Notes: a model not told the origin generated them from the letters alone. DNA of 64,000 nucleotides from an uncultured Chloroflexia bacterium (GCA_963707215.1 CAVPPB010000003.1:480001-544000); one strand, 5' to 3'; positions 31,698 through 33,350 are shown, numbered from the stretch's first letter. A program made the numbers and translations.

Positions 31698-31726
31698 TTG
31701 ACGACGACGGATGCGTCAGGCATCCT
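31698..31726 (+). promoter_or_regulatory. sigma70-type promoter for the met leader
   Basis: TTGACG (31698-31703), 17-nt spacer, CATCCT (31721-31726); the leader ATG follows at 31736. Confidence 0.6.
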
Positions 31727-31735
31727 CCGTCGACC

Positions 31736-31801
31736 ATGACCCGAATGGCTCGTCGCATGTTCATGCCCTGGCGGCCCCGCCGCGTGGAGGACGGGGTCTA
31801 G
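31736..31801 (+). CDS. Met-rich leader peptide [21 protein letters not shown] (putative attenuator)
   Basis: ATG codons at 31736, 31745, 31757 and 31763; lies between the promoter and an intrinsic terminator upstream of metY. Confidence 0.7.
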
Positions 31802-31843
31802 GTCTCCGGAGGCTTTCAGCCGGGGACCCGGACCGGTCCCGGG

Positions 31844-31881
31844 GCCGCAGGATCCGACCGCATCGGACCTGCGGCTTTTCT
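31844..31881 (+). terminator. intrinsic terminator (attenuator) in the metY 5' region
   Basis: GCCGCAGG-A-TCCGA / loop CCGCA / TCGGA-CCTGCGGC, followed by TTTTCT. Confidence 0.8.
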
Positions 31882-32012
31882 GTACCTCCCACACGACGCG
31901 ACGGACGCCGCACCTCTCCCCCGGATCCGCGCCGGATCCCCGTGCCCGCACGGGCACGACGGGACGATCACCGTCTCCCGACCGCCCCGCCCGAACGAGA
32001 GGTACCCAGGTC

Positions 32013-33350
32013 ATGGCCTTCGAGCCCATCGCACCCACCACCCGCCCCGAGACCCTCGCCCTGCACGCCGGCCAGACGCCGGATCCGGCCACCAATGCCC
32101 GGGCCGTGCCGATCTACGCCACGACGAGCTACGTCTTCAACGACGCGGCCCACGCCGGCCGGCTCTTCGCCCTCGAGGAGTTCGGCAACATCTACACCCG
32201 GATCATGAACCCGACGACCGGTGTCTTCGAGGAGCGGATCGCCGCCCTCGAAGGAGGGGTCGGGGCGGTCGGGCTGTCCTCCGGCCAGGCAGCCGAGACG
32301 CTGGCCATCCTCAACCTGGCCCGTGCCGGCGACGACATCGTCAGCAGCTCGAGCCTTTATGGCGGGACCTACAACCTCCTTGCCCACACCCTGCCCAGGC
32401 TCGGCATCACGACCAGCTTCGTGGACGGCTCGCGGCCCGAGGCCTTCGGCGACGCGATCGGCCCGCGGACCAAGGCCGTCTTCCTCGAGACCATCGGCAA
32501 TCCCCGGCTCGACGTCCACGACATCCGGGCCATCGCCGACGTCGCCCACGCCCAGGGCGTCCCCGTCATCGTCGACAACACCTTCGCTCCCCTGCTCTGC
32601 CGACCGATCGAGCTCGGTGCCGACGTCGTCATCCACTCGGCGACGAAGTGGATCGGCGGCCACGGCACCGCCATCGGTGGCGTCGTCGTGGACGGCGGCA
32701 ACTTCGACTGGGAAGGCTCCCCGAGGTTCACGGCCGACCTCGTCGAACCCGATCCCTCGTACCACGGCGTCAGCTATACGAAGGCGTTCGGGCGCCTCGC
32801 CTACATCATCAAGCTGCGGGTCCAGCTGCTCCGCGACATCGGCCCGGCCCTGTCCCCGTTCAACTCGTTCCTCTTCCTCCAGGGCCTCGAGACGCTGCCG
32901 CTCCGCATCGCCCGGCACAGCGAGAACGCCCTCGCGGTCGCCCGCTGGCTCGAGTCACGACCGGAGGTGGCCTGGGTCAGCTACCCGGGGCTCGCTTCGC
33001 ACCCATCCCACGGCACCGCTCTGCGGACACTGTCCGGCGGCTACGGAGGGATCGTGACGTTCGGGCTGGCTGGAGGGCTGGACGCCGGCCGACGGCTCAT
33101 CGACTCGGTCCGCGTCTTCAGCCTCCTGGCCAACGTCGGCGACGCCAAGTCGCTGATCATCCACCCGGCCTCGACGACGCACCAGCAGCTCGGCCACGAG
33201 GACCAGCTGCTGACCGGAGTGACCCCGGACCTGGTCCGCCTGTCGGTCGGCCTGGAGCACGTTGACGACCTCATCGCCGACCTCGAGCAGGCGATCGCGA
33301 CGGCGACCGCAGCCGACCGCCAGCCGGCCGCCACCAAGAACGGGTCCTGA
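32013..33350 (+). CDS. metY: O-acetylhomoserine aminocarboxypropyltransferase (sulfhydrylase)
   Basis: [38 protein letters not shown] and [22 protein letters not shown]. Confidence 0.93.

Follow-up and report, generated by a model that had tools for sequence, protein, structure and literature searches.

A putative leader-peptide attenuator upstream of metY-metX in Limnocylindria, and Met/Cys-rich leaders before metY in other phyla

Methionine (Met) control is usually exerted by MetJ/MetR-type proteins, S-adenosylmethionine (SAM) riboswitches or T-boxes, and leader-peptide attenuation is described in textbooks and comparative surveys for Trp, His, Leu, Thr, Ile/Val and Phe. What, then, controls the metY-metX genes in a 64,000-nucleotide (nt) stretch of DNA from an uncultured Chloroflexia bacterium (GCA_963707215.1, CAVPPB010000003.1:480001-544000; hereafter the window, with positions counted from its first nucleotide), where metY is preceded by a short Met-containing open reading frame (ORF) and an intrinsic terminator? 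Based on a comparison with related loci, we propose that this leader is probably a ribosome-mediated (leader-peptide) transcription attenuator of metY-metX, which would sense the charging of Met-tRNA and, in relatives, that of cysteine (Cys)-tRNA as well. An initial annotation of the window had put forward a leader attenuator of this kind, and the support for that interpretation is comparative throughout, i.e., the leader is present in 16/16 Limnocylindria loci and no riboswitch matches it. The leader contains the structural parts of a leader-peptide attenuator, namely a leader ORF, regulatory Met codons, a terminator and an antiterminator that excludes it, and these are arranged in the window as follows.

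31698..31703, plus strand: -35-like hexamer TTGACG, read directly in the window
31721..31726, plus strand: -10-like hexamer CATCCT, 17-nt spacer after the -35-like hexamer, read directly in the window
31736..31801, plus strand: putative leader ORF of 21 codons and TAG (31799-31801), read directly, 211 nt upstream of metY
31757..31765, plus strand: proposed regulatory codons Met-x-Met (ATG TTC ATG), both ATGs invariant in 17/17 leaders
31771..31779, plus strand: antiterminator 5' arm GCGGCCCCG, inside the leader ORF, pairing with 31840-31848
31792..31798, plus strand: protector arm CGGGGTC, which can pair with GGCCCCG at 31773-31779 (7 pairs, including one G-U)
31801..31839, plus strand: spacer with local hairpins, of varying sequence and length among relatives
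31840..31848, plus strand: antiterminator 3' arm CGGGGCCGC, overlapping the terminator 5' arm at 31844-31848
31844..31881, plus strand: intrinsic terminator, hairpin 31844-31875 and TTTTCT 31876-31881, from direct reading, motif scan and folding
31885..31911, plus strand: block conserved behind the terminator, reading CCTCC ... CGACGGACGCCGC in the window, with a counterpart at the same place in L001-L017 (alignment)

Relatives were collected by one scan of a species-representative genome collection with MetY, which gave 80 loci (numbered from L001). The closest MetY loci, 72-81% identical, come from metagenome-assembled genomes labelled Limnocylindrales, Limnocylindria, Chloroflexia or Chloroflexota, and Gemmatimonadota provide the next-closest loci after this Limnocylindria group; judged by sequence, the window lineage is most likely the Chloroflexota class Limnocylindria and not Actinobacteria. 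The set of 17 leaders used below consists of the window and the 16 Limnocylindria loci that include upstream DNA.

Conservation of the small ORF and of its Met codons, the loss of which had been named beforehand as grounds for giving up the annotation, was found throughout this group. The motif ATG-NNN-ATG-N4-GGCGGCCCC occurs exactly once per locus, 170-225 nt upstream of metY, in 16/16 Limnocylindria loci, and an in-frame small ORF is present on the metY strand in 17/17 leaders. The exact pattern ATGNNNATGNNNNGGCGGCCCC was found in 0/64 other loci, and it is present as a single copy in each of the 16 loci and in the window. Across the 16 loci, the frame consensus is ATG-NNN-ATG-(CCC/CGC/CGT/ACA)-NGG-CGG-CCC-CGN-(C/A)GN-NNG-GAG-GAY-GGG-GTC-stop, with the translation pattern M[CFSGA]M[PRT][WGR]RP[RH][RS].... 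The middle codon of Met-x-Met varies at all three positions, being TGT/TGC (Cys) in 12/17 leaders and otherwise TTC, TCC, GGC or GCC, i.e., Phe (window), Ser, Gly or Ala. The stop codon stands at the same alignment column in 12/17 leaders (TGA in 11, TAG in the window), the 3-nt deletion of L002 is in frame, and L013 carries a -1/+1 indel pair that leads back to the stop used by L010. The invariant ATGs around a variable triplet, the shared stop column and these two indel patterns suggest that the frame is read as codons. As to which amino acid is sensed, the proposal of a Met sensor agrees with the invariant Met-x-Met, but a restriction to Met does not agree with the Cys middle codon in 12/17 leaders or with the Met/Cys runs in other phyla described below; the class would seem to sense sulfur amino acids, rather than Met alone.

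The substitution pattern bears on what the peptide itself does. Mean pairwise differences at codon positions 1/2/3 are 0.60/0.61/0.53 before Met-x-Met and 0.152/0.154/0.184 after it. The peptide itself appears to be free of amino-acid-level selection, as expected of a leader peptide, which speaks against a functional small protein. It had also been suggested that the tail of the peptide acts as an arrest motif, and a rival explanation can be built on this, in which a metabolite-sensing nascent peptide in the manner of TnaC or SpeFL stalls the ribosome with its tail (...M-x-M-P/R-W/G-R-P-R-R-x-E-D-G-V) and the position of the stalled ribosome chooses between terminator and antiterminator. The tail does look peptide-conserved in 12/17 leaders, and in the folding described below a ribosome on the stop codon favours the antiterminator in 12/17 folds, so that a stall there could switch the system. 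However, there is no third-position excess of substitutions, the conserved positions are exactly those in RNA pairings, synonymous sites included, and codons 4, 5, 9 and 10 change freely (P/R/T, W/G/R, R/S and V/A/E/T/S/L, respectively). In L013 the frame shifts after Glu while the nucleotides are kept, and the tails of L010, L015, L011 and L014 differ. In addition, a stall at abundant metabolite would be expected to switch the genes on, which is the wrong direction for a biosynthetic operon. With conservation at the RNA level, no codon periodicity and the frame change in L013, the arrest-motif suggestion was dropped; amino-acid-level conservation independent of RNA, as in a TnaC/SpeFL-type arrest peptide, was not found, and this explanation has hardly any probability.

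The RNA pairings are the second line of evidence. The terminator claimed at 31844-31881 is present as a hairpin of 13 bp with one bulged A and the loop CCGCA (about -24.9 kcal/mol); its inner stem and T tail were recovered by motif scan, and the hairpin lies within the minimum-free-energy fold of 31736-31890. When the 17 leaders were analysed by RNAalifold, the terminator stem showed 3 pairs with changes on both sides, with 0/500 shuffles reaching its covariation score, and the full-length leader adopts the terminator fold in 16/17 cases. The complementarity behind the proposed antiterminator was likewise confirmed: GCGGCCCCG and CGGGGCCGC are perfectly complementary in the window (9 G-C pairs), the 3' arm overlaps the terminator 5' arm, and 99.3% of cells are paired across the 17-leader alignment. 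GCGGCCCCG is invariant in 17/17 leaders save for its last base, which is A in L002, and CGGGGCCGC is invariant apart from 3 loci in which a C has become T and a G-U pair is retained. Not even the third bases of CGG and CCC vary in the 5' arm, while the third base of the next codon does (C/A/T), as do other third positions. Synonymous sites that are fixed exactly over the pairing point to an RNA-level constraint there.

Between the two arms, the window spacer forms a 9-bp hairpin of GGTCTCCGG (31801-31809) with CCGGGGACC (31820-31828). Most relatives instead have a spacer hairpin CGGGACC-loop-GGTCCCG, which abuts and overlaps the antiterminator 3' arm, and the 5' arm of that hairpin is taken up in the window by the 31801-31809/31820-31828 hairpin.

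At the 5' end, the TTGACG-N17-CATCCT promoter that had been claimed is at its place, and the pair is conserved in relatives: TTGAC[GA] occurs at the aligned position in 11/17 Limnocylindria leaders and is followed by a CAnnnT hexamer, with CACCAT, CATCCT, CATACT and CATGCT as the -10-like variants. In the lineages keeping TTGAC[GA] (11/17), an in-frame ATG or GTG stands 8-10 nt past the CAnnnT hexamer. In the window, the ATG at 31736-31738 follows after 9 intervening bases (CCGTCGACC) and has no GGAGG-like Shine-Dalgarno sequence, in agreement with the start codon as annotated; read from these positions, the leader ORF is probably leaderless or nearly so.

A promoter, an ORF and a terminator also make a complete transcription unit, and the leader could accordingly be an independent small RNA or small-protein gene, with a transcript of about 146 nt (31736-31881) that acts in trans while metY is transcribed from another promoter. 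In some bacteria, attenuated leader transcripts are known to have effects in trans, and a free-standing gene is also favoured by the conserved block 3' of the terminator. However, the E. coli-type consensus scan found no promoter-like site between the terminator and metY, the unit occurs only beside metY, once in each of the 16 loci and in the window, the antiterminator complementarity would be needless, and the peptide is without amino-acid-level selection. A free-standing gene is therefore considered very improbable.

In the relatives, this block reads CCTCC(G)...CGACGGGTnnCCGCC directly 3' of the T-run. Its sequence complements GGCGGCCCCG...CGGAGG of the leader ORF (GGCGG...GGAGG), with the segments in the right order; the CCTCC 3' of the terminator is complementary to the Shine-Dalgarno-like GGAGG at 31786-31790 inside the leader ORF. 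A helix between the leader ORF and this block was considered and rejected, with the same layout in 9/17 leaders and an energy no better than that of shuffles (z -1.9 to +1.0). The block might provide a second partner for the antiterminator arm, or it might be an anti-Shine-Dalgarno element acting on metY translation.

The attenuator that we favour would work as follows. Transcription would start just upstream of or at the ATG at 31736, and the short ORF, with no Shine-Dalgarno sequence before it, would be translated. A shortage of charged Met-tRNA would make the ribosome stall at the Met codons at 31745-31759, and in the relatives scarce Cys-tRNA would cause a stall at the middle codon too. 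The stalled ribosome would leave GCGGCCCCG (31771-31779) free to pair with CGGGGCCGC (31840-31848) once the latter is transcribed. This antiterminator would remove the first five bases of the terminator 5' arm, and RNA polymerase would read through into metY-metX. When Met is plentiful, the ribosome would cross 31771-31779 while the terminator is being transcribed; after its passage, the protector hairpin would take up 31771-31779, the terminator at 31844-31881 would form, and transcription would stop. The ORF, the conserved Met codons, the terminator, the conserved complementarity, the lack of known riboswitches and the recurrence of Met/Cys ORFs with terminators are direct observations. We infer that the ORF is translated, where its transcription begins, that ribosomes stall at the Met codons, which way the switch acts and how timing would give the OFF state.

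This scheme was examined by folding each of the 17 leaders with a ribosome footprint masked from -15 to +11 of the aminoacyl (A) site, with the transcript folded to the terminator loop, i.e., before the 3' arm is made, and with the antiterminator scored as present when at least 7/9 of its pairs occur in the minimum-free-energy fold. The antiterminator was present in 14/17 leaders when the A site held the first Met of Met-x-Met, in 14/17 with the middle codon there, and in 0/17 with the ribosome over 31771-31779. In this model, a stall at the first sensor codons would free the antiterminator, and a ribosome on its 5' arm would block it.

Several observations weigh against the attenuator, and some of them come from the same folding. 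The antiterminator was found in 0/17 leaders with the second Met in the A site, where the ribosome would itself cover part of 31771-31779. It was found in 12/17 with the ribosome on the stop codon and in 7/17 without any ribosome. L007, L011 and L014 had no antiterminator with the first-Met ribosome, and in L011 and L014 it was absent under every mask. An OFF state after the ribosome has reached the stop codon is left unexplained by equilibrium folding in this model; it would have to come from timing, from a steric block imposed by the terminating ribosome, or from the protector forming again. The pairing of the protector had been proposed from the window, where it exists, but the hairpin is intact in 12/17 leaders only, being broken in the L010/L013/L015 and L011/L014 groups. 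Comparison of the upstream regions gave covariation at 3 pairs of the terminator and none in the antiterminator, since both arms of the latter are invariant. In the window, 12.5% of 200 dinucleotide shuffles give an antiterminator duplex as good (z -1.05), and the fold of 31736-31890 is mildly better than shuffles (z -1.76, 9/200 as good). These single-sequence statistics are weak, and it is thus conservation, and not the window by itself, that carries the case.

The sensor and its expression also raise doubts. The Limnocylindria sensor is short, with 2 Met and usually 1 Cys, and the Met+Cys density at Met-x-Met (3/8 codons in 15/16 loci, 5/8 in L004) is, at 3/8, not above that of shuffles, 6.5-16% of which are as dense. 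The window ORF has 4 Met in its first 10 codons (at 31736, 31745, 31757 and 31763), a density that had been called unlikely in such DNA. Stop-free stretches of this kind average 0.0 in 30 mononucleotide shuffles, which bears out the claim, but they number 4 in the six frames of the 64-kb window, so the leader's is not unique and three further sites have one. These other stretches, at 48924, 38820 and 35843 (all minus strand), probably come from ordinary genes read in an antisense or out-of-phase frame, and the window gave no second Met/Cys-dense small ORF. In 31300-32300, the E. coli-type consensus scan found 0 promoter-like sites; the promoter was not called because CATCCT fits TATAAT at 3/6 positions only. 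In L011 and L014, the first in-frame ATG lies inside the presumed -10 region and the start is uncertain, and both the translation of the 31736 ORF and the position of the transcription start are putative, as predicted from the sequence. The initiator tRNA needs Met, so Met starvation should lower initiation too. Finally, the GAG codon within the GGAGG at 31786-31790 is invariant in 16/17 leaders, and the leader-peptide model does not explain it.

The invariant GGAG and the failure of the ribosome-mask folding to give an OFF state both speak for a different kind of device, i.e., an undescribed ligand- or protein-binding RNA switch, such as a small aptamer for SAM or methionine. The sensor would then consist of the conserved 45 nt (AUGnnnAUG...GGCGGCCCC...GGAGG...GGGGUC), with the ATGs being structural or ligand-contacting rather than codons, and binding would lock 31771-31779 into a local hairpin, so that the terminator forms. 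The short core is indeed constrained at the RNA level, with invariant synonymous sites and no codon periodicity (0.152/0.154/0.184), and an upstream UCUCC could pair with the hairpin-loop GGAGG in 7-8/17 leaders, a pseudoknot topology like that of small riboswitches. However, the window and about half of the relatives lack the UCUCC arm, and the invariant ATGs, which flank a free triplet in frame with the start and a conserved stop, are codon-like. RNAalifold on the 17 leaders found the terminator and two small invariant hairpins only, with no aptamer-like fold and no conserved covarying helix besides the terminator.

Database searches also argue against an RNA switch. The search for a SAM riboswitch or T-box that might account for the locus gave no match, at E<=10 in 31300-32300 or window-wide: with 4227 Rfam families, the only hits in 31300-32300 were Xoo2, mir-4850, M23 and BcKCsr2 (E 0.34-4.3), which are unrelated, and at gathering thresholds the whole window gave tRNA and a thiamine pyrophosphate (TPP) riboswitch elsewhere. 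No Rfam family was found upstream of metY in L001-L020, including all 16 Limnocylindria loci, and the Rfam scans of all 80 loci gave no family for the leader itself. Moreover, a specific aptamer would not explain the unrelated Met/Cys ORFs at the same place in other phyla. An RNA switch is thus considered unlikely, and the ligand-binding RNA, the arrest peptide and the free-standing gene are each less well supported than the attenuator.

Met+Cys density was scored in the 400 nt before metY, as the maximum over any 8 stop-free codons, for the 78 of the 80 loci with enough upstream DNA. At least 5 Met/Cys in 8 codons occur in 13/78 metY leaders, vs. 8/2314 control 400-nt segments from the same loci and 0/78 antisense leaders; at least 6 occur in 7/78 leaders vs. 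2/2314 controls. Examples of these stretches are the following.

MCCCCMMM: L049, Bacteroidetes
TMMCMCMC: L036, Longimicrobium
CMAMCMCM: L075, Gammaproteobacteria
MCMTMAMC: L071, Eisenbacteria
VMCMCMVM: L026, Gemmatimonadales
IMMAMMCM: L047, Melioribacter
MCLSCMMM: L065, Ignavibacteria
MCCRQCKC, MCCRMIPC, LMCCCIPC, ICMCPQMC: L016, L018, L019, L020, respectively, Gemmatimonadota

These Met/Cys peptides are unrelated to each other and to the Limnocylindria leader. Among 26 leaders examined, 24 have a strong terminator about 40-130 nt downstream, and none was found in L018 and L020. In the 24 leaders with a terminator, the terminator 5' arm has a complementary segment downstream of the Met/Cys run, with a mean z of -1.85 against dinucleotide shuffles and 11/24 at p<=0.05. 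This segment overlaps the leader stop codon in the AT-rich L047, L049, L060 and L065, as in trpL, and in GC-rich lineages, that of the window among them, the stop comes 15-30 nt after it. Melioribacter (L047) has two Met/Cys small ORFs in series upstream of metY, at 2642 (VMMCMML...) and 2830 (IMMAMMCM...).

A SAM-I or SAM-II riboswitch lies just upstream of metY in 29/80 loci, in 0/16 Limnocylindria loci and not in the window. In four to five loci, the Met/Cys small ORF stands in tandem with a SAM riboswitch, each device having its own terminator; in L049, L060 and L065, a SAM-I riboswitch with a second terminator lies downstream of the Met/Cys ORF and its terminator. The leader ORF of L026 has 10 Met in 20 codons. 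The tandem arrangements are listed below, and they suggest that the two devices are not redundant.

L049, 2582-2870: ORF, then SAM-I
L060, 1822-2113: ORF, then SAM-I
L065, 2635-2903: ORF, then SAM-I
L024, 80-359: ORF, then SAM-I, further upstream
L026, 2413-2925: SAM-II with its own terminator before the ORF

That this logic recurs independently in several phyla, and beside SAM riboswitches, strengthens the case for the attenuator. On balance, we lean slightly towards the existence of a so far undescribed cross-phylum class of leader attenuators that would read Met-tRNA and Cys-tRNA and control metY, in the direct-sulfhydrylation route to homocysteine. This class would include Limnocylindria, Gemmatimonadota, Acidobacteriota, Ignavibacteria/Bacteroidota, and one genome each of Acidimicrobiia, Eisenbacteria and Gammaproteobacteria, and its leaders would be independent, unrelated ORFs with their own terminator and antiterminator, which replace SAM riboswitches or stand in tandem with them.

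How does the proposed attenuator compare with known systems? Like trpL, hisL, leuL, thrL, pheL and ilvL of Proteobacteria and their actinobacterial counterparts, the 5' leader contains a short ORF enriched for end-product codons, an intrinsic terminator ahead of the first gene, and an ORF-linked segment complementary to the terminator 5' arm. Unlike these classical attenuators, the window leader would sense Met (plus Cys in the relatives), its ORF lacks a Shine-Dalgarno sequence, with a start that is probably at the 5' end or close to it, and its host belongs to Chloroflexota. Whereas the terminating ribosome covers the corresponding segment in trpL, the antiterminator arm would stay uncovered by a terminating ribosome here, as the stop in the window is 20 nt further on. 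There is no clear conserved region 1, the role of which is partly taken by the downstream protector hairpin; an extended protector stem (ATGCGC with GCGCAT), resembling a classical region 1, is present in some relatives (L001, L006) and absent from the window. The SAM-I and SAM-II riboswitches at metY share with the leader their position, their presumed task and a terminator-based shut-off when the product is plentiful, but they sense SAM directly via an RNA aptamer.

Terminator-based attenuation by Met or Cys was not described in the literature searched. The only precedent found, in the excerpt available of the source, is the predicted "metL" of Streptomyces lividans TK24, a leaderless peptide (...ARCMCRRMCAF) upstream of metNIQ that was proposed as a methionine-dependent attenuator, as a prediction only and with no typical Rho-independent terminator (PMC8079986). 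As described there, "metL" resembles the window leader in being a leaderless short ORF upstream of a methionine-related operon, and it mixes Met and Cys codons near its end; it differs in preceding a transporter operon, in being known from one genome with no comparative evidence, and in sharing no sequence with the window leader. Mycobacterial polycysteine leaderless ORFs, according to the part available of bioRxiv 10.1101/834739, act on translation via Shine-Dalgarno sequestration rather than on transcription termination. These are likewise leaderless small ORFs that respond to the charging of a sulfur amino-acid tRNA upstream of sulfur-metabolism genes, but they carry Cys runs only, whereas the window leader has no Cys codon and a strong terminator and its Limnocylindria relatives have a single Cys. 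A translational attenuator of this mycobacterial type was considered for the window and rejected, on the same absence of a Cys codon and presence of a terminator. Cys leader peptides have been predicted in Actinobacteria, with nothing for methionine in the excerpt concerned (PMC1262725), and the corresponding excerpt of a genome-wide attenuator survey mentions no Met leader (PMC2965389). In the full-text literature searched, we found no description of a leader peptide of the Met or Met/Cys kind that is combined with a terminator before metY, nor of a Met/Cys leader in tandem with a SAM riboswitch.

The genes that this leader precedes in the window are the following.

32013..33350, plus strand: metY, O-acetylhomoserine sulfhydrylase (TIGR01326, 648 bits vs. 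a cutoff of 495.1)
33352..34461, plus strand: metX-like homoserine O-acetyltransferase (TIGR01392, E 7e-84; NF001209, E 2e-82; neither score reaches the curated cutoff)

The metX-like gene probably starts with GTG at 33352, 1 nt past the metY stop. The upstream neighbour is a divergent ADP-forming acyl-CoA ligase-like gene on the minus strand, the true start of which is probably ATG 31552, as the typical N-terminus of the ligase-like protein follows this codon. Since this gene is divergent, the 460-nt gap is the metY promoter region, and a forward terminator within the gap cannot end another gene. A longer minus-strand ORF, 29464-31764, crosses the leader ORF antisense, with its family match beginning about 60-75 residues in; its 5' extension over the leader is probably non-coding. 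Elsewhere in the window, the TPP riboswitch at 25978-26084 (minus strand) scores 65.3 bits vs. a gathering score of 54.3, and a tRNA-Gln(CTG) gene at 36128-36202 lies directly upstream of glnS. The GlnRS frame is split over the overlapping ORFs 36043-36801 and 36788-37999, in different frames with the shift near 36740-36790, which is either a real frameshift or an assembly error.

A ribosome-read Met/Cys sensor before metY would fill a gap among the known attenuator amino acids, and sensors of this kind seem to have evolved repeatedly among little-studied phyla. Met is also needed for initiation, and how a probably leaderless Met-sensing leader behaves when initiation itself is starved is a mechanistic question in its own right. 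For metagenome-assembled genomes in which Rfam models give no hit, the motif offers a means of annotating regulatory leaders. If the reading is true, the tandem arrangement would be a two-input gate, in which SAM is read by RNA and aminoacyl-tRNA by the ribosome.

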